Shown in pieces: positions 39,578 to 54,645 of a DNA stretch of 64,000 nt (position 1 is its first letter; each line of letters starts with the position of its first letter). Both the position numbers and the translations under genes were made by a program. The stretch comes from a virus: the IMG/VR virus record IMGVR_UViG_3300023174_000104, positions 32,689-96,688 of that record, one strand, 5' to 3'. The notes below the pieces were generated by a model, which worked only from the letters and a program-made list of their open reading frames with translations, was not told where the DNA came from and made no database searches.

Positions 39578-39610
39578 TACGTTATTTGTTCGCAAATGAT
39601 AAATAAGTGT

Positions 39611-40324: not shown

Positions 40325-40362
40325 TTGGATACATAGAGGTTCAACTCCTCTAGGACGCACCA
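40283..40362 (+). tRNA. Non-canonical tRNA-Arg(ACG)-like gene lacking a D-arm
   Basis: Acceptor GCGTCTT/AGGACGC+ACCA; anticodon arm CTGG-CTACGAA-CCAG; T arm AGAGG-TTCAACT-CCTCT; only 8 nt between acceptor and anticodon arms. Confidence 0.7.
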
Positions 40363-40498
40363 AAATTTGACAATAATTAAATTGTCTGTTACAATACATT
40401 TTTAACAAAGGAAACGACATGAAGCATAGTAAGCGATAGTGTCATCATAGGCTTCCATAGGTCTATGATTGGCACGTAAAATCAAACATACGACTTAT

Positions 40499-40572
40499 GG
40501 GAGTGAAACTTTAAGGTGAAGTAACCGGCTTTTAACCGGTAAAATTCGGATCGTTCCCGAACACTCCTACCA
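40499..40572 (+). tRNA. tRNA-Lys(TTT)
   Basis: ACCGG-CTTTTAA-CCGGT; atypical T loop ATCGTTC; CCA. Confidence 0.85.
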
Positions 40573-40660
40573 TATAAAAACACATTACCGAGGACCGAAC
40601 TCTTTACTATGGGCTCCGACCATAAAGAGAGGTAGTGTGTTTCTATATGGTATAATAAAA

Positions 40661-40752
40661 GGAAACGTGGCAGAGCCCGGTTTATTGCACCTGACTTGAA
40701 ATCAGACGGATTAGAAATAGTCCCGTGAGTTCGAATCTCACCGTTTCCACCA
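40661..40752 (+). tRNA. tRNA-Ser(TGA)
   Basis: CTGA-CTTGAAA-TCAG, long variable arm, TTCGAAT, CCA. Confidence 0.92.
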
Positions 40753-40754
40753 AT

Positions 40755-40831
40755 GGTGCTTGTCGTCAAGCGGTTAAGACCTCGGATTGTGATTCCGATA
40801 TGCGTGGGTTCAAATCCCATCAAGCACCCCA
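40755..40831 (+). tRNA. tRNA-His(GTG)
   Basis: TCGGA-TTGTGAT-TCCGA; G-1:C73; CCA. Confidence 0.92.
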
Positions 40832-40834
40832 AAC

Positions 40835-40910
40835 GGTTGAATAGCATAGCGGCCAATGCACCACCTTCATACGGTGTTTATCGTCGGTTCGAGTCCGACT
40901 TCAACTACCA
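40835..40910 (+). tRNA. tRNA(CAT), Met or Ile2
   Basis: CACC-TTCATAC-GGTG; TTCGAGT; CCA. Confidence 0.8.
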
Positions 40911-40918
40911 ATCATTAT

Positions 40919-40992
40919 TCCCGGTTAGCTCAAAAGTAGAGCACACGACTGATAATCGTGCGACAGAGGAGCGTTACCTCTACTGGGAACCA
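40919..40992 (+). tRNA. tRNA-Ile(GAT)
   Basis: CACGA-CTGATAA-TCGTG; atypical T loop AGCGTTA; CCA. Confidence 0.85.
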
Positions 40993-41076
40993 AGTTGTGT
41001 TGCAACTAATTTCAGGGAGTGTACGTTAGCCTGAATTAAAATGAAAAAAATCGGCGCCATATTTTAGGAGACTCAC

Positions 41077-41166
41077 ATGAGTTGGAATCAATCATTAGAA
41101 AAACATAAACAAGAAATTGAAGCATGGACACATTTATGTAATGTGTACAAGGAGTCTCTTTATTAA
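41077..41166 (+). CDS. Small ORF (29 aa)
   Basis: RBS AGGAG; MSWNQSLEKHKQEIEAWTHLCNVYKESLY*. Confidence 0.35.
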   Translation: MSWNQSLEKHKQEIEAWTHLCNVYKESLY

Positions 41167-41175
41167 AGATAAAAT

Positions 41176-41250
41176 ACCCTCTTTGCCAAGCGGTAAGGCC
41201 TCGGATTTTGATTCCGACATTCGGTGGTTCGAATCCATCAGGGGGTGCCA
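41176..41250 (+). tRNA. tRNA-Gln(TTG)
   Basis: TCGGA-TTTTGAT-TCCGA; TTCGAAT; CCA. Confidence 0.9.
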
Positions 41251-41254
41251 GTTA

Positions 41255-41403
41255 TGGGATAGACGATAGGTTTGAGTCCCTGTCAATCTAATCACAGTGG
41301 GGTTAACTGTGATGACACTATAGTATGATTGATAGGTGTATAAACTTGCCTATACGAGACAATCTAATGAGGCTTATTAACAATAAGATAGTTAGGCTCC
41401 CGC
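41255..41403 (+). ncRNA. Unidentified structured RNA between tRNAs
   Basis: CCTGTCAATC/GATTGATAGG, ATCACAGT/ACTGTGAT and GTATA/TATAC stems. Confidence 0.4.
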
Positions 41404-41411
41404 CTTTATAA

Positions 41412-41487
41412 ACCAAGATAGCTCATCAGGTAGAGCACTAGTTTGAAGCACTAGGTGTGGTTGGTTCAAGTCCAACTCTTGGTACCA
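41412..41487 (+). tRNA. tRNA-Phe(GAA)
   Basis: CTAGT-TTGAAGC-ACTAG; TTCAAGT; CCA. Confidence 0.85.
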
Positions 41488-41489
41488 AT

Positions 41490-41564
41490 GGGTCCTTAGT
41501 TCAATGGATAGAATACGATGCTTCGAACTTCGGGATGTGGGTTCAATTCCTACAGGACCCTCCA
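41490..41564 (+). tRNA. tRNA-Arg(TCG)
   Basis: Loop CTTCGAA; acceptor GGGTCCT/AGGACCC; CCA. Confidence 0.85.
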
Positions 41565-41612
41565 GTACATGATTAAATACAATTAGTGACTAAAAGCGAA
41601 AAGGAGTAAATT

Positions 41613-42173
41613 ATGGCTGTTCTAGCACTAGATATCAGTGGAGTTCCCCGGCAGTGGATCTCAAATGATGACGCAATTACCTATCAAGCAAAAGATGCCA
41701 TCGCATGGAGTATGGGCAATATTGTGGCTAGATATCGTGGTGGTATACAAAATGACGGTACATTAAGTTACTTAGAAGCTAGTAGCATTATCGCTATCAA
41801 AGGTCATGGATTCAATCCATACAAACATTCATGTGTAGCACTAACTAATAAAACATTGTTTGGTCGTGATAGACATGTATGCGCTTATTGTGGAAATCAT
41901 TTTCCAAACTTTCATGTATTAAGTCGTGATCATATTCATCCAAAAAGTAAAGGTGGTGAAAACACCTGGATGAATGTGGTTACAGCATGTCGTGATTGCA
42001 ATAGTAAAAAAGGTCATAAGACATTGAAAGAAGCAAAGATGGAACTATTATATACTCCATATGTACCAAACCACTACGAAAATATGATATTACAACATAG
42101 AACAATTCTTGCCGATCAAATGGAATATTTGTTAGCAGGAGTTCCAAAACATAGCAGAATTTTATTATCATAG
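41613..42173 (+). CDS. HNH endonuclease (McrA/HNH_5-like)
   Basis: RDRHVCAYCG...SRDHIHPKSKGGENTWMNVVTACRDCNSKKG. Confidence 0.9.
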   Translation: MAVLALDISGVPRQWISNDDAITYQAKDAIAWSMGNIVARYRGGIQNDGTLSYLEASSIIAIKGHGFNPYKHSCVALTNKTLFGRDRHVCAYCGNHFPNFHVLSRDHIHPKSKGGENTWMNVVTACRDCNSKKGHKTLKEAKMELLYTPYVPNHYENMILQHRTILADQMEYLLAGVPKHSRILLS

Positions 42174-42200
42174 TGTATAATACTGTTAAATAAACATATT

Positions 42201-42276
42201 GCCCCCTTAGCTCATCTGGTAGAGCAACTGATTTGTAATCAGTAGGTGGTCTGTTCGAGTCGGACAGGGGGCACCA
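42201..42276 (+). tRNA. tRNA-Thr(TGT)
   Basis: ACTGA-TTTGTAA-TCAGT; CCA. Confidence 0.93.
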
Positions 42277-42283
42277 AAATTAT

Positions 42284-42364
42284 TCCACGGGAGCCGCCGG
42301 GTGTGGCAGCAGACTGTTAATCTGTGCGAAAGCTAGCTAGGTTCGAGTCCTAGCCGTGGAGCCA
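42284..42364 (+). tRNA. tRNA-Asn(GTT)
   Basis: GCAGA-CTGTTAA-TCTGT; extra GC-GAAA-GC variable hairpin; CCA. Confidence 0.85.
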
Positions 42365-42379
42365 AACATAAATAACTAT

Positions 42380-42998
42380 ATGTATGAATGTATAGAGTGT
42401 AATAAATTGTTTGCTAGTATTATGGCCTTAACCGGGCATAAACGAATGCATGGCCAATCTAATGGTAAATCTAAAAAAATAGTATGTTCTTGTTTGATAA
42501 CTCGTAAAGTAATGCCTTATCAAAATTTAGAACAATATCAAAAAACATTAATTGGATGCAAACAATGTAATAAAATATTTCATCCTACTACGGAAAGAAA
42601 AACTTTTTGTAGTCAATCATGTTTGTTCTGCAACATATAATAATAAAATTTACGTAAAAAGACAGAAAAAAGAAAAACCACCAAAAACACCTAGAGCTAA
42701 AAAAATATACTCAGAGGCAGAGATTAGAGCAAGAAATGTATCATCGGTGCAGGCATATAGACAACGAAAATATAGTGCTACCCCAATAGATGTTGACCGT
42801 AAACTAATACAAATCATTTACGAAAATTGTCCTGTAGGCTATGAAGTAGACCATATTATAGCAATTAGTGAAGGTGGTCCGCATCATCAAGACAATCTAC
42901 AATACCTTCCTGCTATAGTAAACAGGAAGAAAAACCGCTATCAAAATTATGATAAAGACTCAGTTTTGCGATGGCAAGATATTATTGTCAAAGGTTGA
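42380..42998 (+). pseudogene. Frameshifted zinc-finger/HNH endonuclease
   Basis: C2H2-like finger in one frame and VDHIIAISEGGPHHQDNLQ HNH in another, joined across a TGTT duplication at 42620-42627. Confidence 0.7.
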
Positions 42999-43044
42999 CA
43001 ATAAATCAAATCTCTGCTACAATAAAGGAAAGTTAGAAATTTAG

Positions 43045-43119
43045 CTGGCGTTAGTATAATGGATAATACAGTAGCCTTCTAAGCTATCAATAGAGGTTCG
43101 ATTCCTCTACGCCGGACCA
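43045..43119 (+). tRNA. tRNA-Arg(TCT)
   Basis: GTAGC-CTTCTAA-GCTAT; TTCGATT; CCA. Confidence 0.9.
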
Positions 43120-43703
43120 TCAAAATTTTCTAGTAGTAATCGCCATTCATCATTACTAAAGTGATAATCTTCTAATACTTCTAACATTCTAGCAAAAACT
43201 ATTAAACCTCTTTTATGGTGAATTAATTCAGTATGTAGTCCTAATATTTTTTTATCAATTACAGACTTTAATACATTCTCACCTTCTTTTTTTAATTTAA
43301 TTTTTTTAGAAATAATGTTCATTTTATTTATTAGATTGTTACATTCTACAATGGCATTATTTGTTAGTTGTTGTAATGCACGAATTTCAATTCGCATTTT
43401 TAATATTAAATCATCAATCTCCGGATTGATATGTTGAACAAATTGTGAAATCATAATAGCTAGTCTAGCCATTACCTCACTATCAAGATTAATATCATCA
43501 TATTGATCGCCGGTACTATCATAGTGTTCACGTTTAATTGGATCACTTAATACTTCATATGCCAATTTCATTCGTTTAAACTTTTCTACATCTCCTCCCT
43601 TATCAGGATGATGTAATTGTGCTAAGATTCTGTATTTTTGTTTGATTTCTTCAGATGTGCAATTTTTTGGTAATTCTAAATCATCATATAGGGAGGTTGT
43701 CAT
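43107..43703 (-). CDS. DnaJ (J-domain) protein
   Basis: LYDDLEL...EEIKQKYRILAQLHHPDKGGD...AYEVLSDPIKREHYD. Confidence 0.9.
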   Translation of the reverse strand: MTTSLYDDLELPKNCTSEEIKQKYRILAQLHHPDKGGDVEKFKRMKLAYEVLSDPIKREHYDSTGDQYDDINLDSEVMARLAIMISQFVQHINPEIDDLILKMRIEIRALQQLTNNAIVECNNLINKMNIISKKIKLKKEGENVLKSVIDKKILGLHTELIHHKRGLIVFARMLEVLEDYHFSNDEWRLLLENFDGPA

Positions 43704-43758
43704 AACAATATTTATCATCATGCATTTTATGTAGTATTAAGTACTACAATGATAAAAT

Positions 43759-43925
43759 TTGACAATAAATCCTCAATCTGCTATACTCTAGTTATAGATT
43801 GATTGAACAAGTTCTTGGGAAACAGAGAAACGAAAGAATTTGACAATAAATGGTAGTTATGATACAATCATAGCATGAGTTGAGAAAAGTCATCGTACTA
43901 CTCAACAAAGTTCTTTAAAATTTAG
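43759..43925 (+). promoter_or_regulatory. Tandem sigma70 promoters plus boxA-like element
   Basis: TTGACA(43759)..TGcTATACT, TTGACA(43840)..TGaTACAAT, then GTTCTTTAAAA at 43910. Confidence 0.65.
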
Positions 43926-43955
43926 AATTCATATAGCCCTGTTTAAGTTACAGGG

Positions 43956-44175
43956 ACTATATGTAAACATATTAAGGGTTACCTGATCCGTTAGGTACTC
44001 TATGGAAGCATAACCAGTTGACGGACTGGCTTCGCATAGAGTACAAGAAGCGTACCGACAATAGCAATATTGTTTAACGTGACGGGCAGTTAGGCAGTAA
44101 TGACGAATGACATTGCATCAGTAGACGGTACTGATTATTTGTTTAATAGTTCCCATAGTGTGTTTTCATATAGTG
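43956..44175 (+). ncRNA. Structured RNA enclosed by a long stem
   Basis: ACTATATGTAAACATATTA pairs with TAGTGTGTTTTCATATAGT; internal hairpins GTACTCTATG/CATAGAGTAC and ATCAGTA/TACTGAT. Confidence 0.55.
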
Positions 44176-44176
44176 T

Positions 44177-44303
44177 GTTATTAGTTTTGCTGATGTAAGC
44201 CATTGAGTAAACGTCAACTCTAAGTAACTATGTATATAAACGGTACGTCCAGCTGGCAATTCCGTTGAGCATAGCAAATAGTGCGTCAGCAAAACTAATA
44301 ACA
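44177..44303 (+). ncRNA. Structured RNA enclosed by a ~22-bp stem
   Basis: TGTTATTAGTTTTGCTGATGTA / TGCGTCAGCAAAACTAATAACA. Confidence 0.5.
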
Positions 44304-44304
44304 T

Positions 44305-44379
44305 GTCGCATTAGACTTCTGGTGAGGTCATCACCCTTTCAAGGTGACTAGACGGGATCGTAACCCGTATGCGACTCCA
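44305..44379 (+). tRNA. tRNA-Glu(TTC)
   Basis: TCACC-CTTTCAA-GGTGA; atypical T loop ATCGTAA; CCA. Confidence 0.87.
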
Positions 44380-44386
44380 ATTTTTT

Positions 44387-44730
44387 GTAGTTAGGTGAGA
44401 GGCGTGGGCAATTGTTGGAGATCAACTAACAGCTACATTTTTAATTTCGCATAGTTTAATACTAGAACAAAATGACACTAGGGTACCTTAGTGTAGATAT
44501 CGGCGGAGTACTGTTCCGATTGCGTCAAGAATCCCGTTACTATTTTCGTTAAAATAGCGTTTGATTAATGATAGAGATCCGGTGGCAGAAAACCGTTAGC
44601 GTGAGGATTAAAAATACCCTTGCAGGCTCTGATAGGCAGAATCTCACTGCACACAGACTTTGAATAAATGAGATGGACAGAGTAACCGCTCAATTAAGGG
44701 CTTGTGTGGAAACAAGTAGCTTATACTAAT
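44387..44730 (+). ncRNA. Large unidentified ncRNA (3' domain shared with 51196-51406)
   Basis: ORF-free, multiple stems; ends GACAGAGTA..CTCA.TT.AGGGCT..TGTGG..AGTAGCT..ACTAAT. Confidence 0.55.
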
Positions 44731-44857
44731 ACATAACATAGATGTATACAACAACCCTAATATTGTACACATCTATGTTATACTAATTTTTGAGTTACAT
44801 CGCCCTGATACTTCTCTCAGTAATGAGACACTAGGTCTTGCAACCGTAACTCATCTT

Positions 44858-44943
44858 GGAGATGTAGGAAAATTGGTAACCCCAGGAGACTGTAAATCTT
44901 CCGCCTTATGGCACTACTGGTTCAACTCCAGTTGTCTCCACCA
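44858..44943 (+). tRNA. tRNA-Tyr(GTA)
   Basis: GGAGA-CTGTAAA-TCTTC, long variable arm, CCA. Confidence 0.9.
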
Positions 44944-44950
44944 AGAATAT

Positions 44951-45027
44951 GCACCGTTAGATCAGTTGGTTAGATCGCATGCCTGTCACGCATGAGGCCA
45001 GGGGTTCAAGTCCCCTACGGTGCGCCA
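44951..45027 (+). tRNA. tRNA-Asp(GTC)
   Basis: CATGC-CTGTCAC-GCATG; CCA. Confidence 0.93.
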
Positions 45028-45075
45028 AAATATTTGACTACAATCATTGTATGATATATAATAGTAACAAGATTT

Positions 45076-45373
45076 GCGACTGTGGTGAAATAGGTAGACA
45101 CAAGAGACTTGAGAGTAAAATTTGAGTGCCTTGAGGGAAATCTCAGGAGTAGAACCCGTCAAATTCGGTGAAGGCTGTAAAATGCTAATACCGAGCCAAG
45201 CTTAGTGAGAAATCACTTTGAAGGTGTAGAGACTAGACGGCGGGCATCTAAGGTAGTAATACTATGATGAAGGTATAGTCCAGACCATCAAACTGTATAG
45301 GTAGTGAAAACTATAGTGGTAAGAAAATCTCTCGCTTAACAGCATCCCGGTTCGATTCCGGGCAGTCGCACCA
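45076..45373 (+). tRNA. tRNA-Leu(TAA) interrupted by a group I intron
   Basis: Exon 1 45076-45110 ends AGAGACTT; exon 2 45324-45373 starts AAAATCTCT; spliced loop CTTAAAA. Confidence 0.9.
45111..45323 (+). mobile_element. Group I self-splicing intron (213 nt, no ORF)
   Basis: Inserted after a U, ends in G; core elements AAATTCGGTGAA, AATACCGAGC, GTAGAGACTAGA, GAAGGTATAGTCC. Confidence 0.9.
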
Positions 45374-45382
45374 AAGAATGAT

Positions 45383-45460
45383 GCCTCTATAGCACAATTG
45401 GTTAGTTGCAAGCGACTCATAATCGCTAGGTTCCTGGTTCGAGTCCAGGTGGAGGCACCA
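45383..45460 (+). tRNA. tRNA(CAT), probably Ile2 (lysidine type)
   Basis: AGCGA-CTCATAA-TCGCT resembles the ileX anticodon arm; CCA. Confidence 0.85.
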
Positions 45461-45465
45461 ATTAA

Positions 45466-45553
45466 GGATAGTTGCCCGAGTGGTTAAGGGAGCGGTTTGC
45501 TAAACCGTCGCTGTGAAAACGGCGCATAGGTTCGAATCCTATACTATCCGCCA
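45466..45553 (+). tRNA. tRNA-Ser(GCT)
   Basis: GCGGT-TTGCTAA-ACCGT, long variable arm, CCA. Confidence 0.92.
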
Positions 45554-45735
45554 GATTTCTTTTTTGTTCGGTCTATGATTTCATGGCGAAACATAGGATT
45601 TTCAATCATCATCCGAGCAAGCATACCAGTTAGATAACCCCGTTCATATAATAATTGTTCGTGGCTATCTTTGTAATTATGGTTGTTTTGACGCAACAAC
45701 TTTTCAACAATATCAATACAGTCTTGGATATCCAT
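45544..45735 (-). CDS. Hypothetical protein
   Basis: 63-aa ORF starting 4 nt after TAAATA. Confidence 0.5.
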   Translation of the reverse strand: MDIQDCIDIVEKLLRQNNHNYKDSHEQLLYERGYLTGMLARMMIENPMFRHEIIDRTKKKSGG

Positions 45736-45754
45736 ACTGTATTTATAAAAGAAC

Positions 45755-46030
45755 GTGCCGGGTGTCGCTGGCTACTCTGACCCAGAGGACGAGAAGTGGC
45801 GTGACAGCTACGGGTGGTTCTGAAACGTAATAGTTTCACACAGAGGACATGGAAACATGTGCGTGTATGTGCGGTCTAACCTAACCGGCGCTAGCAATGC
45901 GATAACGGTCCCTGTCGGGAAGCGGGTGGAAGGTATGTGTGATGCATAGAATCGCTAACCTTAGTTGAGTTAGATTCCGGATTAATCTATGTTGATGTAC
46001 TATAATTACCGCCGGGGGATGCCAGAGCAA
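45755..46030 (+). ncRNA. GC-rich unidentified structured RNA
   Basis: GC well above background; CTGGC at the 5' end pairs with GCCAG at the 3' end; internal hairpins; no credible ORF. Confidence 0.55.
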
Positions 46031-46033
46031 TAT

Positions 46034-46110
46034 GTAGGTGTGTCGCTGAATGGTCAGGCCGCGGATTGCAAATCCGTTTTATGCAGGTTCGATCCCTGTC
46101 ACCTACTCCA
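46034..46110 (+). tRNA. tRNA-Cys(GCA)
   Basis: GCGGA-TTGCAAA-TCCGT; U73; CCA. Confidence 0.9.
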
Positions 46111-46121
46111 AAGATATATTT

Positions 46122-46376
46122 TTATTCGGCAGCAGGCGCCTTAGGCCATTTCTTTAATGGGCATTCCTGATTTGGCATCCAAGTTTTTACCTTCATAAAA
46201 CAGCCGCACATTTTACAAGTGTCAGTAGGTTTGTAAAGTTTTTCACAACTGTGACACGTATTATAACGGTATTCTTGAACTTCTATGCTTACTTTGTTTG
46301 AAAGCATACTTGCAGCCGCATTTTCGGCTGCATCACGAACTTGTTCCATTTTTTCTTTGAGTTTGTTTATAATCAT
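46122..46376 (-). CDS. Small Cys-rich protein
   Basis: RYNTCHSCE...CKMCGCFMKVKTW...CPLKKW. Confidence 0.65.
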   Translation of the reverse strand: MIINKLKEKMEQVRDAAENAAASMLSNKVSIEVQEYRYNTCHSCEKLYKPTDTCKMCGCFMKVKTWMPNQECPLKKWPKAPAAE

Positions 46377-47275
46377 AGTAAAATATATTTATACTTAAAA
46401 AATTTAGCTTCATATTTATTTCTGTACAACAAATCAAAATTTCTATTACTCAATTGACTTTCTAATCTTGAGATTTTATCTTGAGCAGTGGGCTGTCTAG
46501 GAGGATTAGTGTCATAAAGATTTTTCAATTTTTCAAACCCATTAAGTTTAGATTTGATTTCTGTGTATCCAGTAAGTTTATCAAGTTGTCCTATCACAGG
46601 AAATCCATAATATTGAAAAGCCTTTACTTTTTCTCCGTAACTTCCAGGTGTATGAAATTTTTGTAGTTCCGGTAACATCACGTCAAAAGCGTATGCTACT
46701 TCACGTGTTTCTAGAAAAAAGAATGGTACTATGTTTTTATTAGATTTGATGCCGTAGTGATATAGGCTCCAATTGTTTCTATCCGGAATTCCTAGATTCC
46801 CATGATTTTTTTGATACATAATATATTGACCAGCAAATATAACAGTACCGGTCTCAGTCATGTCTGCCATTTTCATAAATGTAGTGACTTGTGGACTACC
46901 GCAATAATATTCATTTGCATAATAATCATGTTCATTTTCTAAAAAAGAAATTACATCTAGATCATGGTAATTAATGGTTAAATCATGTTGTGCTGAGAAT
47001 TCTCTAAGAGTGCATAAATCATGCTCATTTAATGTCTGATTATAAACTGCTGAAAAAGTCTCATAAGGGACTCCTGACTTATGCCATGCATATAACATAG
47101 CCTGACTATCAACCCCACCGCTTAAATATAATGTATATGGTGCTGGATAGTTTTTTGTTATGTATTCTATTGTATGAAACGCAGCCTCAAGAGGAGGTAG
47201 TTTTTTATTATCGTTATCTCTAAATTTAAAATAATAATCATCTCCTACTTTATTAGGATTAGCCCATTTTAGCAT
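46373..47275 (-). CDS. PP-loop (adenine nucleotide alpha-hydrolase) protein
   Basis: LYLSGGVDSQAM motif. Confidence 0.65.
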   Translation of the reverse strand: MLKWANPNKVGDDYYFKFRDNDNKKLPPLEAAFHTIEYITKNYPAPYTLYLSGGVDSQAMLYAWHKSGVPYETFSAVYNQTLNEHDLCTLREFSAQHDLTINYHDLDVISFLENEHDYYANEYYCGSPQVTTFMKMADMTETGTVIFAGQYIMYQKNHGNLGIPDRNNWSLYHYGIKSNKNIVPFFFLETREVAYAFDVMLPELQKFHTPGSYGEKVKAFQYYGFPVIGQLDKLTGYTEIKSKLNGFEKLKNLYDTNPPRQPTAQDKISRLESQLSNRNFDLLYRNKYEAKFFKYKYILL

Positions 47276-47286
47276 ATTTGATCCTA

Positions 47287-48963
47287 TCAAGCACCACAGT
47301 AGCAAGCGTTAGAATCTTTACCCGTGCCATCACTACAACAGTATATATTGCAAAGATTACCACAGACTTGAAAACCACCATTTTGTATACAAGGTTGGGG
47401 TAGACTTTGACAGTTAAATAATAATGTTATATGTAGAAGATCATCTGAAGGCACTGTTTCGGGCTGAAAATTTTGAGGTAATACGTAAATAATAAGTGTT
47501 ATGATTTCTGTTGAATCATCTGTGTTTGTTCTCATAAAACTAGATGTATATATTTTATAAGCCTCTCCTTCTGAAGGGCCCTGTGATTCAACCGGATCCC
47601 CGTATACTCTACCATCTGGTACAATCATAAAGTTTTCTGGTAAAGGAACTATCCATTCTATAGATTTGGTAAATATAGGTTCATATACTCGTAAACGAAT
47701 TTTTTCATTGATATCAGTATTTCCTACTCTAAAAGACATTCTGTGTTCATCTGATGATTGAACTAAGGGATAACTATCTCTATCTGTCATAGTTGCAATC
47801 ATATTAACACTATTTTGATATTTAGGGTCAGTTAAATCTAAAAGATCGGGCTTACTGAAAAGTACAGTGTTAGAACCAATAACCGCTGTGCTAAAAAAAT
47901 CATTTTGAAAAACTTCATGTCGTCTGCCATTTTCATATGAGCGTGACGCTAAGTTACATGCTAAAATTGCACTTCCGGTGGCTGCCGCAATAGATGTTCC
48001 GGCAACATAACCATATGTACCGTTTAGTCCAGCCGCCCATATTTCTTCGCCTGGTGCCCAACCATCTAATTCACCGTGATTAGTTTGTCCACCTGTTACT
48101 GATATTGTACTGCCACCGGTATAGTTGCTAAAGTCGCATGGTTTTAAATCTTTGTTATATGCACCGACAGTTATTACATCTATCATACCTGCAGGAGTTA
48201 CATCTTCTATAGATGTACCATTATTTCCTGCGGCCGCAATGATGAACACACCTTCATCTTCTAACACACGTAGTTTATTTTCTACCCATGCATTTTTTGG
48301 AATAGACCAACTTGCATTTAATACACTATATGTACCGTCAACATGGTCGTTTATGATAGCCTCTAATGCATCTAAGAATTCATGTTCGGTGGTAGCATGA
48401 TTAGGGTCAAATATTTTTACAATTTTTAGTTTTGCTTCAGTAATACCGCAGGTTTTGCCAACAATTACGCTAGCAATCGCAGTACCGTGACCTTTGTTAT
48501 CACTAAAATCACCGGGGGTCACACTATAGATATTTGTAATATTAGCGTCAATAAACTCAGGGTGTGAGGCTTCTATACCACTATCCATGACATACACACT
48601 TATAGATTGACCTAATCTTTTAATAATTGCGGTAGGTGACGTAAACTCCGGTTGATTACGAGAATAGTTTTTCCACCAGTCTTTGGTATCGTTAACATCA
48701 ATATTAATTGATTCTTTATTAGGATCCCTATGTGTTCCAAAATAAGGATTAAGAGGAATTACATCTAGTGGACGTATAGCTAAGTGATTTTCTTCAGTAA
48801 CACGATCAATTATGGCTGATTCTGGAGGCATTTGATCAGCTTCAACTAAAAAGATTTTATCAAAATTATCCCACTCCTTTAAAACTGTGCATCCGTGCTG
48901 TTGTAGGTATGCACTTATATCAGCATCTAATGTATCTGCTTTAAAATCAATTAAAAATTTCAT
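47287..48963 (-). CDS. Subtilisin-like S8 serine protease with Cys-rich tail
   Basis: VMDSGI, GHGTAIAS, AAAGN, GTSIA catalytic motifs; N-terminal prodomain; 8-Cys C-terminus. Confidence 0.9.
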   Translation of the reverse strand: MKFLIDFKADTLDADISAYLQQHGCTVLKEWDNFDKIFLVEADQMPPESAIIDRVTEENHLAIRPLDVIPLNPYFGTHRDPNKESINIDVNDTKDWWKNYSRNQPEFTSPTAIIKRLGQSISVYVMDSGIEASHPEFIDANITNIYSVTPGDFSDNKGHGTAIASVIVGKTCGITEAKLKIVKIFDPNHATTEHEFLDALEAIINDHVDGTYSVLNASWSIPKNAWVENKLRVLEDEGVFIIAAAGNNGTSIEDVTPAGMIDVITVGAYNKDLKPCDFSNYTGGSTISVTGGQTNHGELDGWAPGEEIWAAGLNGTYGYVAGTSIAAATGSAILACNLASRSYENGRRHEVFQNDFFSTAVIGSNTVLFSKPDLLDLTDPKYQNSVNMIATMTDRDSYPLVQSSDEHRMSFRVGNTDINEKIRLRVYEPIFTKSIEWIVPLPENFMIVPDGRVYGDPVESQGPSEGEAYKIYTSSFMRTNTDDSTEIITLIIYVLPQNFQPETVPSDDLLHITLLFNCQSLPQPCIQNGGFQVCGNLCNIYCCSDGTGKDSNACYCGA

Positions 48964-49141
48964 ATTTCGGAACCCCTGTTAGTTATAGCAGTATTTATCT
49001 TTTTTATCATGGTTCATTAAATTTAATGTTTTTGGTCAATACAATACTCAATTATTGTTGACATATTGCTATATTTGCTGTTATACTAAAGACTTCGTAA
49101 AAACCAAGTTTTTACAAAAAACAATTTAAATTAAAATAAAC

Positions 49142-49780
49142 ATGAAACAAATAGATGCATTAGCGGTTCCTTTCTACGAATTCCGGTGTGATGAAAAATT
49201 GATTGATGAAATCCTACCCTTAATTAAAAATCTTGATTACAAAAAGAATACAGATTCTGCTGAACTCTCAACTCAGTATTTTTATCATAAAGAACTGTTT
49301 AAATGGTTTGATGAATGTTTGGAAGAAGTACGGCAACTATATTTTGATTCAACTTTAAAAATGGTAATTACTACCTGCTGGTCAACTAAAACTATGCCTT
49401 TTAAAAGGCATATAACTCATAATCATCAACAAACGCTAATAGGTGGTATTTTATACCTTGATGACTTTCAAAGCGGAGAGACTGTTTTTACTACACCTAA
49501 TCCATGGTTGAGATATCAAAATGAACATATTATGAATGTTTCTACCCAACAGTTGAGTCAATCAAAACTTACAACAAAGATTGTACCTGAGAAAGGTAAA
49601 CTTGTTTTATATCCTCCACATATATTTCATGGTACTATGCCAAACAAAGATAAAAAAATAAGACATACATTGGCATTTGATGCATTCTTTTCTGGTAAAA
49701 TTTATGAAAATTCTAATTGGCCGTATGTTGAAATAAATTCTAGTAGCCTGCAAGAAATAGTTGAAAATAAAGATTCTTAA
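49142..49780 (+). CDS. 2OG-Fe(II) oxygenase-like protein
   Basis: HITHNH...GILYL...PEKGKLVLYPPHIFHGT...RHTLAFD. Confidence 0.8.
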   Translation: MKQIDALAVPFYEFRCDEKLIDEILPLIKNLDYKKNTDSAELSTQYFYHKELFKWFDECLEEVRQLYFDSTLKMVITTCWSTKTMPFKRHITHNHQQTLIGGILYLDDFQSGETVFTTPNPWLRYQNEHIMNVSTQQLSQSKLTTKIVPEKGKLVLYPPHIFHGTMPNKDKKIRHTLAFDAFFSGKIYENSNWPYVEINSSSLQEIVENKDS

Positions 49781-49798
49781 TTAAGCTTCACCAAATTA

Positions 49799-49963
49799 TT
49801 ATAGTGATTGAATGAACTGTTTTGCAGGTTCAACACTACTGAAAAACTTCATTGTCATTGTGAAGTTTACAAGATCATGTACCATAATATAAAAGGATTC
49901 GTCTTCCATCATTGAAAGATGGATATGTAATCCGGTTTTTGTAACAGTATCGTATATGTACAT
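49799..49963 (-). CDS. Small hypothetical protein (54 aa)
   Basis: MYIYDTVTKTGLHIHLSMMEDESFYIMVHDLVNFTMTMKFFSSVEPAKQFIQSL*; 5 nt after TAAATA. Confidence 0.5.
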   Translation of the reverse strand: MYIYDTVTKTGLHIHLSMMEDESFYIMVHDLVNFTMTMKFFSSVEPAKQFIQSL

Positions 49964-49975
49964 AAATATATTTAT

Positions 49976-50050
49976 GCGGGATTAACTCAGGGGTAGAGTG
50001 TCAGCCTTCCAAGCTGTTCGTCAGCGGTTCGAATCCGCTATCCCGCTCCA
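49976..50050 (+). tRNA. tRNA-Gly(TCC)
   Basis: CAGC-CTTCCAA-GCTG; CCA. Confidence 0.93.
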
Positions 50051-50052
50051 AC

Positions 50053-50682
50053 TTATTTTAAAATGATTCTATCACTATATATGAATCTATCATTAAACAT
50101 AGAAGCACAAATATGTTTATATTCCTCATAATTTGAAATTATGTCTTTATACTCAATATTGGATGCTTGTATCCCCTGCAGGCTTACATTAAAGTAATCA
50201 AGTAAATTTTCATACCAATAGTATTGATAAGGTATATTATTCTGCTCTAAATAGATTTGTATTTTGCAAAAGTTAGATATATCATTTATGATAGATTCTA
50301 CAGTTGACATACTAAGTTCATATTGTAATTTTTTTATTTTATCAAATGCGTTGTTATTTCTATTATGCCATATCCCACTGCTTATACTAACTTGTAAACT
50401 ACAGCATTGGTCTAAATAGTTTTTACGATTGATTAAATAGATTTTATCAAATGATTCAAGCCTAAGTTTTGAAATATCTTCTTCTAATTTAATATTGTGA
50501 CCTAATATTTTCAAAATAAATTGCTCACTTCTATGAATTAAATTAGTATTAAATTCTATAGAATTTGTACTATTGTATGTATAAAATTCATATAAGCATT
50601 TTAATTTAGGATATTGCCTACGTATAATTTCAACTAATAGAGTTGATCTGGTTCTAGCAGATCCTATCACAAGAATTTTCAT
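50053..50682 (-). CDS. Sulfotransferase-like (Stf0/P-loop) protein
   Basis: KILVIGSARTRSTLL PAPS-loop-like motif; LINRKNYLDQCCSL; YWYENL. Confidence 0.7.
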   Translation of the reverse strand: MKILVIGSARTRSTLLVEIIRRQYPKLKCLYEFYTYNSTNSIEFNTNLIHRSEQFILKILGHNIKLEEDISKLRLESFDKIYLINRKNYLDQCCSLQVSISSGIWHNRNNNAFDKIKKLQYELSMSTVESIINDISNFCKIQIYLEQNNIPYQYYWYENLLDYFNVSLQGIQASNIEYKDIISNYEEYKHICASMFNDRFIYSDRIILK

Positions 50683-50957
50683 ATTGATCCAAGTCTACTT
50701 AAAATGTTCATTGCTCTGGTTCTTAATCTTTCAGTAAATTCTGATTCAGTTAATACACCTTTAGCAAGATTACATTTTCTACAAGTTACTTGAAGATTGT
50801 TGTATGTAGTTTGTCCGCCCTTACTTTCAGGAATAACATGATCCATGTGTATTTCTTTATCGGACAAGTCTTCATCACAATATACACAATGCAAACCATC
50901 TCTATCCATAACTCTACGGCGTAGGTTAAGAGGAATGTGTTGTTTCTTTTGTAACAT
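50679..50957 (-). CDS. Small HNH endonuclease
   Basis: RDGLHCVYC...MDHVIPESKGGQTTYNNLQVTCRKCNLAKG. Confidence 0.9.
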   Translation of the reverse strand: MLQKKQHIPLNLRRRVMDRDGLHCVYCDEDLSDKEIHMDHVIPESKGGQTTYNNLQVTCRKCNLAKGVLTESEFTERLRTRAMNILSRLGSI

Positions 50958-51029
50958 AAGTTTATTTAGTTACCCAAATATAGTAGACAGATAAATAGTT
51001 TTCTGTTAAACTATAGTTTGTTCTTTAAA

Positions 51030-51114
51030 GCGGACGTGGCGTAATTGGCAGCCGCACCAGATTTAGGTTCTGGCGTCGTAAGATGTGTGAGTTCGAGTCT
51101 CACCGTCCGCACCA
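51030..51114 (+). tRNA. tRNA-Leu(TAG)
   Basis: CCAGA-TTTAGGT-TCTGG, variable arm, CCA. Confidence 0.92.
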
Positions 51115-51119
51115 AATTG

Positions 51120-51193
51120 GGGGGATTGATGTAATGGGAGCCTGGGACCTTTGCAAGGTCTTCGTAACAGTTCGATTCTGTTATCCTCCACCA
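51120..51193 (+). tRNA. tRNA-Ala(TGC)
   Basis: GGACC-TTTGCAA-GGTCT; G3:U70; CCA. Confidence 0.88.
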
Positions 51194-51195
51194 AG

Positions 51196-51406
51196 AAACC
51201 CGTTTACACTTTTACGTTATAAAGTGGGTGGGGCAGTCACCAAAGAAAGTGCTAGGTATGTAGTGCATTGACCATCCGTACTCTGTGGTGGAGTGGCGGG
51301 AACGCATTAGGTGAGGAACGCTAACCTTTTCCAAAAGTAAAAATACGTAGACAGAGTAGTTCCACTCAGTTTAGGGCTCATGTGGTGTGAGTAGCTAGAC
51401 ACTAAT
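51196..51406 (+). ncRNA. Unidentified ncRNA (3' domain shared with 44387-44730)
   Basis: TACTCTGT/ACAGAGTA long-range pairing; shared 3' motif. Confidence 0.55.
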
Positions 51407-51409
51407 TAC

Positions 51410-51484
51410 CGCGGGGTGGAGAAGTAGTAACTCATCAGGCTCATAACCTGAAGATCGGCGGTGCGAATCCGTCCCCCGCATCCA
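51410..51484 (+). tRNA. Initiator tRNA-fMet(CAT)
   Basis: CGCGGGG start with C1:A72 mismatch; TCAGG-CTCATAA-CCTGA; CCA. Confidence 0.88.
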
Positions 51485-51498
51485 AATAGGAATATTAT

Positions 51499-51648
51499 AT
51501 GCCAATGTATGAAACAACAGTTCGCACACCAGAAGGTGATAAGAAAGATAAAGTCTATGCACCTAATGTACAAGAAGCTAAAAAGCTTTTTGAACAACGC
51601 CATGGTCCTAGAAATGTTCCATACATACCGCATGTAATACCAAGTTAA
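51499..51648 (+). CDS. Small hypothetical protein
   Basis: RBS AGGA; MPMYETTVRTPEGDKKDKVYAPNVQEAKKLFEQRHG... Confidence 0.55.
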   Translation: MPMYETTVRTPEGDKKDKVYAPNVQEAKKLFEQRHGPRNVPYIPHVIPS

Positions 51649-51654
51649 TTTTAC

Positions 51655-51731
51655 CTCGGTGTAGTATAGCCTGGTTAGTACTCGTGGTTTGGGACCATGA
51701 AACGGGAGTTCGAATCTCTCCACCGAGACCA
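51655..51731 (+). tRNA. tRNA-Pro(TGG)
   Basis: CGTGG-TTTGGGA-CCATG; CCA. Confidence 0.92.
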
Positions 51732-51752
51732 AGTTTTTAAAAAGGAAATAGT

Positions 51753-51917
51753 ATGACATGTAGAGGATATGATGCGAAAGCAGTGAAAGTTTCAAAGACA
51801 GTTAAACGTGCCGCGGCATTGATTAGTGATGCACATAAACGTGGAAGTTTTATTCGTAGTTATGTTGAGATTGAAAGAAGCAATTCTCGTACCGCATCTC
51901 GTAAGGATAGCAAATAA
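51753..51917 (+). CDS. Small basic hypothetical protein
   Basis: RBS AAGGA; MTCRGYDAKAVKVSKTVKRAAALISDAHKRGSFIRSY... Confidence 0.55.
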   Translation: MTCRGYDAKAVKVSKTVKRAAALISDAHKRGSFIRSYVEIERSNSRTASRKDSK

Positions 51918-51944
51918 CTAGTATAGAGATTAATTTCATATAAT

Positions 51945-52643
51945 ATGAAATACTTATTGGGTCCTTCTAATCTACAAACTGAGTTTGAATTTGAAATTTT
52001 TAAAAAATTTGGAAAATTGACTATTGTTGATAATATCATTTTTCCTAAAATTGATAAAATAGGATTATTCCTGTCAGGTGGATTAGATTCAGCGGCATTA
52101 TTATGTTTAATTCTTACCGAGTTAAAAAACATCAATAAGTTAAATGAACTCCCCGTAGTATGCTTTACTGTTGCTAAAGAAAATATACCAACACATTATG
52201 CTACGGATGTTTTAAACTATGCCCAAAATAAGTTTAATGTTAGTCTCACTCATATAAACGACATACCTAATACTCCTCAAGCTGATAAGATAGGGATATT
52301 GGGTAGTACTACAATGAAGTTTGCACGTGAGTATTCTTCAAACATGATAATATATCTAGGTCAAAATAAAATGGCTCCTAGTGATATTAGACCATTCAGT
52401 CAACAATTAAATGTTGATTATGGAAATAAAAAAACTGTTAATAAGATTACATCACCTTTCTTATTTCTGCATAAACCACAGATAGTTGATTTAATATATC
52501 AATTGGGATGTGAAGAAGTAATACCTTTAACAAAATCATGTTCAGCACAACCAATTGAAAATTGCGGAATATGTTATGCATGTGCTGAAAGAAAATGGGG
52601 TTTTGATGCATTAGGAAAAATTGATACTGGAATTGTTAGTTAA
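51945..52643 (+). CDS. QueC-like PP-loop ATPase
   Basis: LSGGLDSA; PFLFLHK; TKSC..CGICYACAER. Confidence 0.75.
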   Translation: MKYLLGPSNLQTEFEFEIFKKFGKLTIVDNIIFPKIDKIGLFLSGGLDSAALLCLILTELKNINKLNELPVVCFTVAKENIPTHYATDVLNYAQNKFNVSLTHINDIPNTPQADKIGILGSTTMKFAREYSSNMIIYLGQNKMAPSDIRPFSQQLNVDYGNKKTVNKITSPFLFLHKPQIVDLIYQLGCEEVIPLTKSCSAQPIENCGICYACAERKWGFDALGKIDTGIVS

Positions 52644-53079
52644 CAACATGTTTGCAATATGCATTTGTTCCAGTTTCACTTTTTTCCCAATCTGATGCTA
52701 ATTCAAATCCAGCAGAGTTATAAGTTTTCCAACTAGTATTTTTTGGGTAACTCCAAATATAATTTGCACCCTCACTTATTCCCTGTTGAATTGTTGCAAT
52801 CAGTATTTGTTTACCTATTTGATTACCACGATATTCTGGAAATACCCATAATCCTCTAGAGCGATATGAATTGTCTTGGCACATATGACCACTGTTTACA
52901 CCTATTATATTGTTATCTATTCTATACGCAAAAAAGGTAGAAATAGAATCCATATTTTGTAAACTGTATCCCCCTTTGAAATTCATTGCACTATTACTGT
53001 CAATGCTACTAGTTCTATTGGGCCACAAGAAGTTGCGCCAAATAGGTAGTATTTCTTCAAAGGATATATGTGTAATCAT
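52636..53079 (-). CDS. GNAT family acetyltransferase
   Basis: RGLWVFPEYRGNQIGK motif A; YNSAGF. Confidence 0.85.
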   Translation of the reverse strand: MITHISFEEILPIWRNFLWPNRTSSIDSNSAMNFKGGYSLQNMDSISTFFAYRIDNNIIGVNSGHMCQDNSYRSRGLWVFPEYRGNQIGKQILIATIQQGISEGANYIWSYPKNTSWKTYNSAGFELASDWEKSETGTNAYCKHVVN

Positions 53080-53197
53080 AACTTTGTTATTTATGAAACC
53101 CGACGTGTATAAATAAAATATAATACAGTCACCCAAATTAACTTGTGTAAAAATACATTATTTGATATAATAATTAAATTGAAAAAAGGAAATATAA

Positions 53198-53377
53198 ATG
53201 AGCAAAGGTAGCTTACCAAGACCTTATAGCGTTGATTTAAAAACGTTTAATAACAATTGGGATAATATTTTTCGTAAACCAGATCCAAAAACTATTGAGG
53301 ATCAACAAATAGAAGATGAGGCGTTTGATAGTATTGCTAATCAAACAGAAGTTAAAGATAGTAACCAGGGTGGTTAA
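53198..53377 (+). CDS. Small hypothetical protein
   Basis: RBS AAGGA; MSKGSLPRPYSVDLKTFNNNWDNIFRK... Confidence 0.6.
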   Translation: MSKGSLPRPYSVDLKTFNNNWDNIFRKPDPKTIEDQQIEDEAFDSIANQTEVKDSNQGG

Positions 53378-53387
53378 ATAGAATTAT

Positions 53388-53462
53388 GCATCGTTAACTC
53401 AGTGGTAGAGTAGCGCCTTTACACGGCGAATGTCGGGAGTTCGACCCTCTCACGATGCACCA
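53388..53462 (+). tRNA. tRNA-Val(TAC)
   Basis: CGCC-TTTACAC-GGCG; CCA. Confidence 0.92.
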
Positions 53463-53476
53463 AACAAAGGAAAAAT

Positions 53477-53698
53477 ATGTCACAAAGCAGAGCAAGATAT
53501 ACAAGTGAAGATGCCGTCAATATGGTCGGTAATCGTTTTGATTTAGTTCTTATAGCCTCACAGCGTGTAAGAGAATTAAAGCGAGGACATCGTTCACTAC
53601 TTACTACTAAATCAGGACCAATGGTTACTGCTTTAGAAGAAATTGAAAAGGGATTAGTAGGACGAGAATATCTTAAACGTATTAGAAAGAATTTGTAA
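53477..53698 (+). CDS. rpoZ: RNA polymerase omega subunit
   Basis: [29 protein letters not shown]...[10 protein letters not shown]. Confidence 0.9.
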
Positions 53699-53703
53699 AC
53701 AAT

Positions 53704-53780
53704 ATCTCCGTAGCTCAATTAGGCAGAGCAGTGAGCTCCAAACTCAAAGGTTGGCCGTTCAATTCGGTCCGGGGATGCCA
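53704..53780 (+). tRNA. tRNA-Trp(CCA)
   Basis: TGAG-CTCCAAA-CTCA; G73; CCA. Confidence 0.88.
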
Positions 53781-53864
53781 AGTAAAGGTGTAAGAAAACT
53801 TACACCTTTAACCATTTGACAATTAATCCGTTTTGTTGTATAATAACTCATTAAGGAACCAATC

Positions 53865-54062
53865 ATGTGGGAAGTAAAAGATAGTGATGGTAATGTCAGG
53901 GGCAAAAACAAAGACCTGACTATCGCAATGGAGATGGCAAAACTTGTTGATGAGTTTGTGACAATCACAGATGGCACAACAGAGATTGTAGGTCACTTCG
54001 GTGTTGATGAAGTGACTGATCCCAGTTATAATGGTTGGATATCTAGAGGAAAAGGAATATAA
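53865..54062 (+). CDS. Hypothetical protein
   Basis: RBS AAGGA, downstream of TTGACA promoter at 53816. Confidence 0.55.
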   Translation: MWEVKDSDGNVRGKNKDLTIAMEMAKLVDEFVTITDGTTEIVGHFGVDEVTDPSYNGWISRGKGI

Positions 54063-54063
54063 A

Positions 54064-54645
54064 ATGCCAGCAGTATTTTTAGTTAGTGATACCCACTTCG
54101 GACACACCGGAGTGTGTCACTTTACAAACAAAGATGGTTCAAAAATGCGACCATGGACTGATCCAGACGAGATGGATGAAGAAATGGTTAAGCGTTGGAA
54201 CGAAACTGTACGACCAAACGATAAAGTATATCACTTAGGTGATGTTGTCATTAACCGTAAAGCATTGAAAATCATGTCTAGGTTAAACGGTGACAAAGTG
54301 TTGATTCGCGGTAACCATGATATTTTTCGTGATGATGAGTATAGAGAATATTTCCGTGAATTACGTGCGTATCATGTAATGAATGGTATGATCTTAAGTC
54401 ATATACCTATTCATACTGAATCGTTAGGACGTTTCGGAACTAACATTCATGGCCACTTACATGCGAATAGAGTAATGATGGAACCAATCGGTAAATATGG
54501 TATCCCTGTTATTGATACTCGCTATCATTGCGTATGTGTTGAGCATACTGATTACAGACCTATATTGTTTGAGGATGTTATTAAACGCATTAACGCAGAA
54601 GGTGGTAGTGTAGGATTCAAAAACGGGAACGGACCTGTAATGTAA
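54064..54645 (+). CDS. Calcineurin-like metallophosphoesterase
   Basis: SDTHFGH, HLGD, RGNHD, SHIP, HGHLH. Confidence 0.92.
   Translation: MPAVFLVSDTHFGHTGVCHFTNKDGSKMRPWTDPDEMDEEMVKRWNETVRPNDKVYHLGDVVINRKALKIMSRLNGDKVLIRGNHDIFRDDEYREYFRELRAYHVMNGMILSHIPIHTESLGRFGTNIHGHLHANRVMMEPIGKYGIPVIDTRYHCVCVEHTDYRPILFEDVIKRINAEGGSVGFKNGNGPVM

Follow-up and report, generated by a model that had tools for sequence, protein, structure and literature searches.

We identified two genes of an uncatalogued structured RNA family within the transfer RNA (tRNA) array of a virus. The DNA analyzed, called the window below, is a stretch of 64,000 nucleotides (nt) that forms the 3' 64 kilobases (kb) of the 96.7-kb virus record IMGVR_UViG_3300023174_000104 (positions 32,689 to 96,688). 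The genes, RNA A and RNA B, are paralogous and about 205-215 nt long, and they represent the two subtypes of the family, A-type and B-type. We regard it as practically certain that this is a real family of structured RNA genes. The limits of the two genes are as follows, with R1 denoting a covariance model built from B-type members only.

~44529-44730, + strand: RNA A (A-type), whole gene; from conservation in 41 distinct A-type relatives and a match to model R1 at 44511-44732 (67 bits, E ~1e-16)
51194-51409, + strand: RNA B (B-type), whole gene; from the tRNA borders and a match to model R1 at 51178-51408 (166 bits)

ARAGORN finds 24 tRNA genes in the window, all on the + strand between 40.5 and 53.8 kb. 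Most spacers in these arrays are 0-25 nt long. RNA B exactly occupies the spacer between tRNA-Ala (51120-51193) and tRNA-Met (51410-51484). A DNA variant found in a lake metagenome lacks RNA B as a unit, with 51196 followed by three other letters and then by 51410, and the gene thus behaves as a cassette. RNA A is atypical for the family in that a 149-nt spacer (44380-44528) separates it from the preceding tRNA-Glu (44305-44379), and its 3' A/U tail is split after 44730 by a 56-nt palindromic insertion. Among the A-type relatives, conservation extends from the equivalent of ~44529 to about 30 nt past the AGGGCT motif.

Inside the window alone, the match between the two RNAs is modest, consisting of a shared 9-mer and scattered identities, and blastn within the window did not report it. 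As a search pattern we used 19 bases from the shared part (GACAGAGTA..CTCA..AGGGCT). At least 119 loci in IMG/VR match this pattern, nearly all of them with an identical 27-nt spacing. Inspection of the flanking architecture separated the matches listed into 117 family members and two chance matches, and the members into two sharply distinct subtypes, with 52 A-like and 65 B-like loci. The same pattern has 28 matches of scattered spacing in 596 gigabases of prokaryote genomes, only one of which is accepted by the covariance model. This sole member from the prokaryote collection (L123) is cut by the end of a 3-kb contig, which belongs to a metagenome-assembled genome with the label uncultured cyanobacterium. 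Either a phage fragment was mis-binned here, or the contig faintly hints at a cyanobacterial host. Apart from this short binned contig, members were found only in contigs of uncultured phages, and blastn of RNA A and RNA B against 50,697 GenBank phage records gave no match.

The smallest carrier contigs are ~97 kb long, and the largest carriers are complete genomes of 525 kb. Only the A-type, in one or two copies, occurs in four complete jumbo-phage genomes (345-525 kb) and in one 286-kb record that is 82% complete. The two types occur together in single loci at least seven times (the window, L013, L051, L063, L070, L106 and L089/L114). Members typically occupy whole inter-tRNA spacers, like extra genes of the array, as RNA B does exactly in the window and RNA A does not. 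Next to the A-type, the following tRNA begins 29-32 nt past AGGGCT in 39 of 51 cases, and the preceding tRNA ends 134-151 nt before the conserved core in 33 of 50. For the B-type, 26 of 40 members begin directly after a tRNA, at a point 149-165 nt upstream of the core. The identities of the flanking tRNAs vary, and include Glu, Tyr, Cys, Thr, Asn, Gly and others.

The fold is a chain of about four abutting H-type pseudoknots. From 5' to 3' the elements are PK1, PKa with hairpin H2, PK2 with the variable hairpin H3, PK3, a near-invariant strand (the core), the hairpin P4a, the hairpin P5/P6, and a tail. PK1 has a first stem (S1) of 2-5 base pairs (bp) and a second stem (S2) of 5-7 bp. PKa forms between the two or three nt that immediately follow PK1 and the loop of H2, which has the consensus A.C(G/C)AUAGA. 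The 4-bp stem of PK2 abuts H2, and its loop pairs with a segment 3' of H3. The hairpin loop of PK3 pairs with six nt ending one base before the core, with an A-rich loop 3 between. The near-invariant strand GGACAGAGUAAC follows PK3, and part of it closes P4a, a hairpin of 3-4 bp. The long P5/P6 hairpin has a GG/UAG internal loop and an apical loop that reads UGUGGUG in the B-type and contains GUGGAA in the A-type. An ACU, A/U-rich tail ends the RNA. The elements of RNA B are listed here with their supporting evidence.

51200-51226, + strand: PK1, with S1 51200-51202/51214-51216 and S2 51207-51212/51221-51226; two compensatory pairs in S1 and six in S2
51227-51253, + strand: PKa, with H2 51232-51235/51250-51253, and 51227-51228 pairing with the loop at 51240-51241; mutual information, and covariation of 4/4 H2 pairs
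51254-51309, + strand: PK2, with S1 51254-51257/51271-51274, loop pairing 51261-51265/51305-51309 and H3 at ~51276-51299; covariation
51310-51348, + strand: PK3, with S1 51310-51316/51325-51331 and loop pairing 51318-51323/51343-51348; five and five covarying pairs
51349-51406, + strand: shared 3' domain, with the core 51349-51360 and P4a 51354-51357/51364-51367; helices 100% and 99% paired, seven covarying pairs
51369-51374/51395-51400, + strand: P5, enclosing P6 (51376-51380/51388-51392) and the apical loop UGUGGUG (51381-51387)

The three helices of the PK2 region of RNA B have 3, 5 and 3 covarying pairs. The corresponding elements of RNA A are as follows.

44535-44557, + strand: PK1, with S1 44535-44536/44547-44548 and S2 44540-44546/44551-44557; covariation
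44558-44579, + strand: region of H2, with the stem 44563-44566/44576-44579; U-A, A-U and C-G at one pair
44580-44631, + strand: putative PK2 analogue, with S1 44580-44583/44592-44595 and CAGA (44586-44589) pairing with UCUG (44628-44631); analogy with the B-type
44636-44674, + strand: PK3, with S1 44636-44639/44647-44650 and loop pairing (S2) 44641-44646/44669-44674; four compensatory pairs in S2, S1 invariant
44675-44730, + strand: shared 3' domain, with the core 44675-44686, P4a 44680-44682/44689-44691, then P5/P6 and the tail; covariation
44695-44698/44720-44723, + strand: P5, with P6 44700-44704/44713-44717 and an apical loop containing GUGGAA

In S1 of the A-type PK1, a C-G pair is replaced once by A-U and once by G-C, and S2 has two covarying pairs. 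The PKa of RNA A would consist of 44558-44559 and the loop nucleotides 44569-44570, as judged from the B-type. Hairpin H3 of RNA A (44601-44623), between the two strands of PK2, covaries. Loop 3 of the A-type PK3 holds a conserved ACACAGAC that is specific to this type.

The pairing scheme is supported by covariation in both subtypes, measured against controls in which the pairing partners were slid. Across 46 pairs in 41 distinct A-type sequences, 97.2% of cells are paired compared with 34-40% after sliding, and 12 pairs show compensatory changes. For the B-type, an alignment of 57 distinct sequences to the nested portion of the model was scored at 53 pairs; 89.1% of cells are paired compared with 34-48% after sliding, and compensatory changes occur in 40 pairs and 492 cells. 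None of 500 shuffles did as well on four of five measures for the A-type or on any measure for the B-type, although the members are akin and these counts are therefore not probabilities.

All ten B-type helices covary, including the three pseudoknot stems that were absent from the model used to align the sequences. An alignment-free comparison of self with cross complementarity was equalled by none of 2000 permutations for each of PK1-S1, PK2-S2 and PK3-S2. The column pairs with the highest mutual information coincide with proposed pairs, and PKa was revealed in this way: columns 56/74 are G-C in 29 sequences and C-G in 18, and the adjoining columns 57/73 are G-C in 57 of 57. Mutual information also gave one additional covarying pair, 51231 with 51276. 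Members that lack the search pattern and were recovered by the model have A-U to G-C and U-G to U-A changes in the core hairpin, and a P5 that is fully rewritten yet paired. The helices of the family covary, and its invariant positions are found in the loops and joining strands. Single-sequence folding energies were no better than those of shuffled sequences (z = 0.12 and 0.34), a measure that is uninformative for pseudoknotted RNAs.

Model R1 matches RNA A from end to end, with most of the score coming from the shared 3' domain, and it aligns the PK1-S2, H2 loop and CGGU/ACCG stem of RNA A to their B-type counterparts. The 3' domains of the two RNAs are demonstrably homologous. A common fold upstream of this domain is supported by the order and topology of the elements and by short motifs, rather than by score. 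One metagenome contig joins the 3' domain of RNA A to that of RNA B, at 44692 and 51374. Either the shared domain is long and similar enough for assembly cross-overs, or the joint reflects real recombination. Two B-type relatives of different 5' classes, the copies in L063 and L070, have one unusual 3' domain in common, which suggests domain exchange.

The original prediction, made from the letters of the window, had pointed to 44676-44730 and 51350-51406 as the covarying 3' domain of two paralogous structured noncoding RNAs in the tRNA array. Both segments read as it gave them, and the proposal is borne out by covariation across the family, with the qualification that the 55-nt segments are only the 3' ends of genes of ~205-215 nt that fill spacers and carry a pseudoknot chain upstream. 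Its GAGT/GCTC hairpin, our P4a, is real at the family level, with U-G changed to U-A in five sequences and A-U to G-C in one. Its apical hairpin corresponds to P6 within the longer P5, has four pair types at one position, and is borne on a P5 stem that is fully changed in some members.

A further proposal, that a CTCTG upstream of each segment forms an alternative or long-range helix with CAGAG, held only in part. The motif is present at 44627-44631 and 51281-51285 and is able to pair, but the helix is not conserved. In the A-type, four of its pairs are invariant, and 11 of 41 sequences have an uncompensated mismatch at the fifth. Just 6 of 58 B-type sequences have CTCTG, and in RNA B the motif is part of H3, the variable hairpin. 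The helix would compete with P4a as well. Judged from the B-type fold, the A-type UCUG more likely pairs with the CAGA of the PK2 loop.

The family is not in Rfam 15, whose 4227 models include GOLLD, ROOL, manA, tmRNA, RNase P, HDV-like ribozymes, glmS, T-box and YrlA. At the gathering thresholds, the whole window gave only tRNAs and one group I intron. Over 40000-54500 at E up to 5 no family matched RNA A or RNA B, and at E up to 10 the two RNAs alone gave noise of 11-16 bits against thresholds of 47-70. The original prediction had named GOLLD and ROOL among the families to be checked, and no described Rfam family matches either RNA. We found no description in the literature: searches by core motifs returned unrelated primers only, and searches by topic returned no matching account.

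Several known phage RNAs are comparable in part. The species 1 and 2 RNAs of phage T4, encoded by rnaC (139 nt) and rnaD (119 nt), are cut out of the same precursor as the tRNAs and still await an assigned function. Like the genes described here, rnaC and rnaD are non-tRNA genes that lie flush within a phage tRNA cluster. They differ in being about half the size and, for rnaC, in ending in a tRNA-like T-arm, whereas the RNAs described here are pseudoknot chains with a different conserved core. The T4 locus has no match to R1 at E up to 1 and none to R2, a second model, made from the B-type 5' two-thirds alone. Another pseudoknotted RNA of similar size is the manA RNA motif of cyanophages and gamma-proteobacteria, which in some cases is located near tRNAs. 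It differs from our RNAs in conserved sequence and in the architecture of its junctions, and the Rfam manA model was unmatched at every threshold used. The tmRNAs contain a string of consecutive H-type pseudoknots and have been reported in large phages beside tRNA genes. In contrast, RNA A and RNA B have no tRNA-like acceptor and T-arm domain and no tag reading frame; ARAGORN called no tmRNA, and no model of the tmRNA clan matched the two RNAs at E up to 10.

Theta ribozymes are minimal HDV-like ribozymes of gut phages with cleavage sites no more than 5 nt from the 3' ends of phage tRNAs (PMC10879173). Like RNA B and most members of the family, they are pseudoknotted and begin a few nt from a phage tRNA 3' end, a position that makes a connection with tRNA maturation plausible. 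They are, however, small nested double pseudoknots for which self-cleavage has been shown in vitro, whereas the RNAs described here are linear H-type chains of 210 nt from aquatic phages. The topology supported by covariation is linear and not the theta-like nested double pseudoknot (P1, P1.1, P2, P3, P4 and a catalytic C), and no HDV-family model in Rfam matched. RNA B, which begins 1 nt after tRNA-Ala, and most members start no more than about 5 nt from the 3' end of a tRNA. RNA A, with its 149-nt gap, does not, and neither do about one third of the members that have an upstream tRNA in the locus. GOLLD and ROOL are large ornate RNAs that are often phage-borne near tRNAs (PMC12286853). They share with our RNAs an intricate fold, carriage by phages and frequent tRNA adjacency, and differ in being about 2-4 times longer, in having multi-stem junctions and in forming homo-oligomeric assemblies; neither has an Rfam match here.

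A number of readings of the conserved motifs were considered and are not supported. RNase P-like P4 and group I-like P7/P3/P8 interpretations of the ACAGAG region conflict with the topology and with the Rfam negatives, and the likeness of ACAGAG to the ACAGAA of RNase P CR-V is one that we take to be superficial. The CR-I-like AAAGU is the 3' strand of PK1-S2 and covaries with its upstream partner. Pairing of GUUAC in PK1 loop 1 with GUAAC in the core is possible in the A-type, in which both are invariant, but many B-type members without UUAC keep GUAAC. Pairing of UGGAC with the 5' strand of P5 (GUCUA) suits most B-type members and fails in the A-type and in members with a changed P5. A coding reading, AUG NNN UGG ACA GAG UAA, is contradicted by the many B-type members without AUG, by the UAG that replaces UGG in RNA B, and by conservation that is uniform over codon positions. 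Binders of the tRNA elbow with a double T-loop have paired AGNNA...UGNNA motifs in conserved loops (PMC3664808). For this module we found only chance-level matches (1 in 64 per site) and no T-box match in Rfam; the T-loop-like UGGAA of the A-type apical loop is not common to the B-type, and AGAGUA overlaps P4a.

The explanation that we somewhat favor overall is that the family consists of structured RNAs occupying tRNA slots, released by processing and acting in trans. Transcription of the array would yield a polycistronic tRNA precursor that includes the RNA, and the processing enzymes of the neighboring tRNAs would then liberate the RNA as a separate molecule that resists nucleases. Its 3' border would be set by RNase P, and its 5' border by the 3'-trailer nucleases of the upstream tRNA. 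Such release by tRNA processing, as for T4 species 1 and 2, is probable. A weak hint of expression comes from two metatranscriptome runs of one estuary study, in which assembled contigs span 44592-44724 and 51184-51349. The freed RNA would then act in trans, with the pseudoknot chain as a rigid scaffold and with the near-invariant strand and the loops of the 3' domain as a working surface that binds a conserved macromolecular partner. The partner could be a component of the tRNA and translation machinery, or a host nuclease or defense factor aimed at that machinery, and the type-specific parts of RNA A and RNA B may provide two specificities. In one attractive version, the RNA would be a decoy for such a host factor. 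A specific function in trans is indicated because the helices covary while the 12-nt strand and several loops are nearly invariant, and it is favored because two paralogous types are maintained. We propose only tentatively that the RNA works in trans by binding or as a decoy, and that it is neither a catalyst nor a spacer.

Several observations weigh against this explanation or the common fold on which it draws. The metatranscriptome contigs provide neither RNA ends nor usable levels and could contain DNA. The RNA genes lie next to tRNAs and homing-endonuclease genes, and no conserved protein gene accompanies them. Model R2 gave only 3-5 bits on the 5' part of RNA A, which is no detection, although this is a weak negative given that R2 has only 12 base pairs and was derived from a poor MAFFT alignment. 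The A-type PK2 and PK3-S1 never vary, and thus have no covariation support of their own and were assigned by analogy. The UGG of the apical loop is not invariant: of 41 A-type sequences, 3 have UAG instead, and of 58 B-type sequences, 3 have AGG. A simple pairing of this UGG with a tRNA CCA end, in the style of RNase P L15 or the T-box, is doubtful for that reason. The discriminator bases of the upstream tRNAs are mixed.

The same fold and position could instead belong to a ribozyme that releases the CCA of the upstream tRNA by self-cleavage at or close to the ribozyme 5' end, or that acts on tRNA precursors in trans. Conserved sequence starting 1-6 nt past the upstream CCA would suit such an enzyme, as would a multi-pseudoknot fold with invariant joining strands, which is the conservation pattern of ribozymes, and theta ribozymes set a precedent at phage tRNA 3' ends (PMC10879173). 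However, Rfam models of HDV-like, glmS, hammerhead, twister, pistol, hatchet and RNase P RNAs were unmatched at E up to 10, and the chain is linear and not a nested HDV-like double pseudoknot. A linker of variable length separates the CCA from the first conserved base, RNA A and many of the B-type are not flush with a tRNA, and the most conserved part of the RNA is at its 3' end, distant from the 5' junction. No known ribozyme fold fits, and we consider a ribozyme improbable, though a serious rival. Nor is the RNA likely to be a passive module of the precursor, an exonuclease-resistant spacer that prevents tRNA misfolding or gives protection until processing and has no later function. Pseudoknot chains are mechanically and nucleolytically robust, the RNAs exactly fill inter-tRNA spacers, and they may be present or absent between the same tRNAs. 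This cassette-like presence or absence, with variable tRNA neighbors, disfavors a spacer tied to a particular tRNA. Moreover, a spacer needs no near-invariant 12-nt strand, no conserved loops and no two paralogous types side by side; the shortness of most array spacers means that tRNAs mature without such modules; and the family is conserved across very different phages, on contigs of 97 to 525 kb.

Control in cis of the transcription of downstream tRNAs, by a riboswitch, a T-box-like element or an attenuator, is the least credible of these alternatives and is highly improbable. The complex fold resembles that of a ligand binder and lies inside an operon, and the original prediction had called the RNAs possibly switch-like. 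A switch is nevertheless unlikely because the RNA abuts the next tRNA, ending 0-3 nt before it, and lacks an expression platform. No terminator/antiterminator alternative exists, the CTCTG/CAGAG helix that might have served as one conformation is not conserved, Rfam gave no T-box or riboswitch match, and the folding scores (z = 0.12, 0.34), which for pseudoknots are expected to be no better than those of shuffles, show no sign of two competing stable folds. The family might also have been described already outside Rfam, for example as fragments among the 8,495 unnamed structured-RNA candidates of 29-151 nt from a survey of IMG/VR (PMC10690425). That survey, which mined the same collection, reports many tRNA-adjacent candidates (PMC10690425). 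Its models are no longer than 151 nt and carry no function, and the text does not name them for a tRNA-slot context (PMC10690425). Together with our full-text motif search, which gave only unrelated primers, and the topic searches, which gave no match, this makes a prior description rather unlikely.

The surroundings of RNA A contain other unusual sequences. DNA variants replace 44301-44527, upstream of the gene, and the 3' part of the 44380-44528 spacer bears a faint likeness to a decayed tRNA T-arm and acceptor end. The insertion in the tail (44731-44786) is a 56-nt palindrome with a perfect stem and with the hexamer ACTAAT on either side. It is absent from relatives (for example L079, L083, L084 and L105) and from the lake variant, in which 44730 is joined to 44787, and a similar insertion is present in the relative L093. 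It looks like a miniature mobile hairpin. Between the palindrome and tRNA-Tyr is a conserved element of ~70 nt (44787-44857) with a 7-bp closing stem and an inner hairpin, for which there was no Rfam family match and no tRNA call; its sequence also follows the A-type RNAs in L070, L079, L083, L084 and L105.

Elsewhere in the window, a further tRNA gene at 45076-45373, not called by ARAGORN, is split by a group I intron (Rfam Intron_gpI, 45101-45300, 57.5 bits). Related introns occur in Agrobacterium phage Atu_ph07 and in a Pelagibacter phage. A GC-rich spacer of ~280 nt before tRNA-Cys (45750-46033) has no Rfam match, and was rejected as a third family member when neither R1 nor R2 matched it; it is probably another uncatalogued RNA gene. 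Of all bins in the stretch, one that overlaps this spacer (45869-46135) has the greatest summed contig depth in the metatranscriptome run. Just upstream of the array, 39543-39671 has weak matches to both models (8.5 and 10.5 bits, E 0.03-0.11) and a PK1-like module, and may be a very divergent relative of the family or a chance match. Homing-endonuclease genes and some other open reading frames are located between the tRNAs; among them are three HNH genes and genes for a DnaJ-domain protein, a QueC-like protein, a GNAT protein, a metallophosphatase, a subtilase and a 2OG-Fe(II) oxygenase. Comparison with PHROGs pointed to no clear lineage. DNA nearly identical to the window stretch is present in public runs from nine studies, labelled as lake, drinking-water, freshwater and estuary metagenomes.

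Large RNAs with multiple pseudoknots and invariant joining strands are rare, and historically have been ribozymes, riboswitches or the cores of RNA-protein machines. The family described here is abundant, with at least 117 member loci among the IMG/VR matches listed, and is essentially absent from cellular genomes. Phage tRNA arrays are loci for taking over translation and for countering host defenses directed at tRNAs. The family sits in such an array, where its two conserved paralogues often adjoin. It is conceivable, if unlikely, that it is a new class of large functional RNA acting directly on tRNAs or the translation apparatus. With the same reserve, such an RNA might serve tRNA maturation, repair or protection as a phage-encoded ribozyme or RNA chaperone, or it might be a decoy against a host defense nuclease that targets tRNAs, and the two paralogous types would then represent two target specificities. 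The covariation-supported fold provides a basis for structural and biochemical work on the family, and it could account for the long "spacers" in some phage tRNA arrays.

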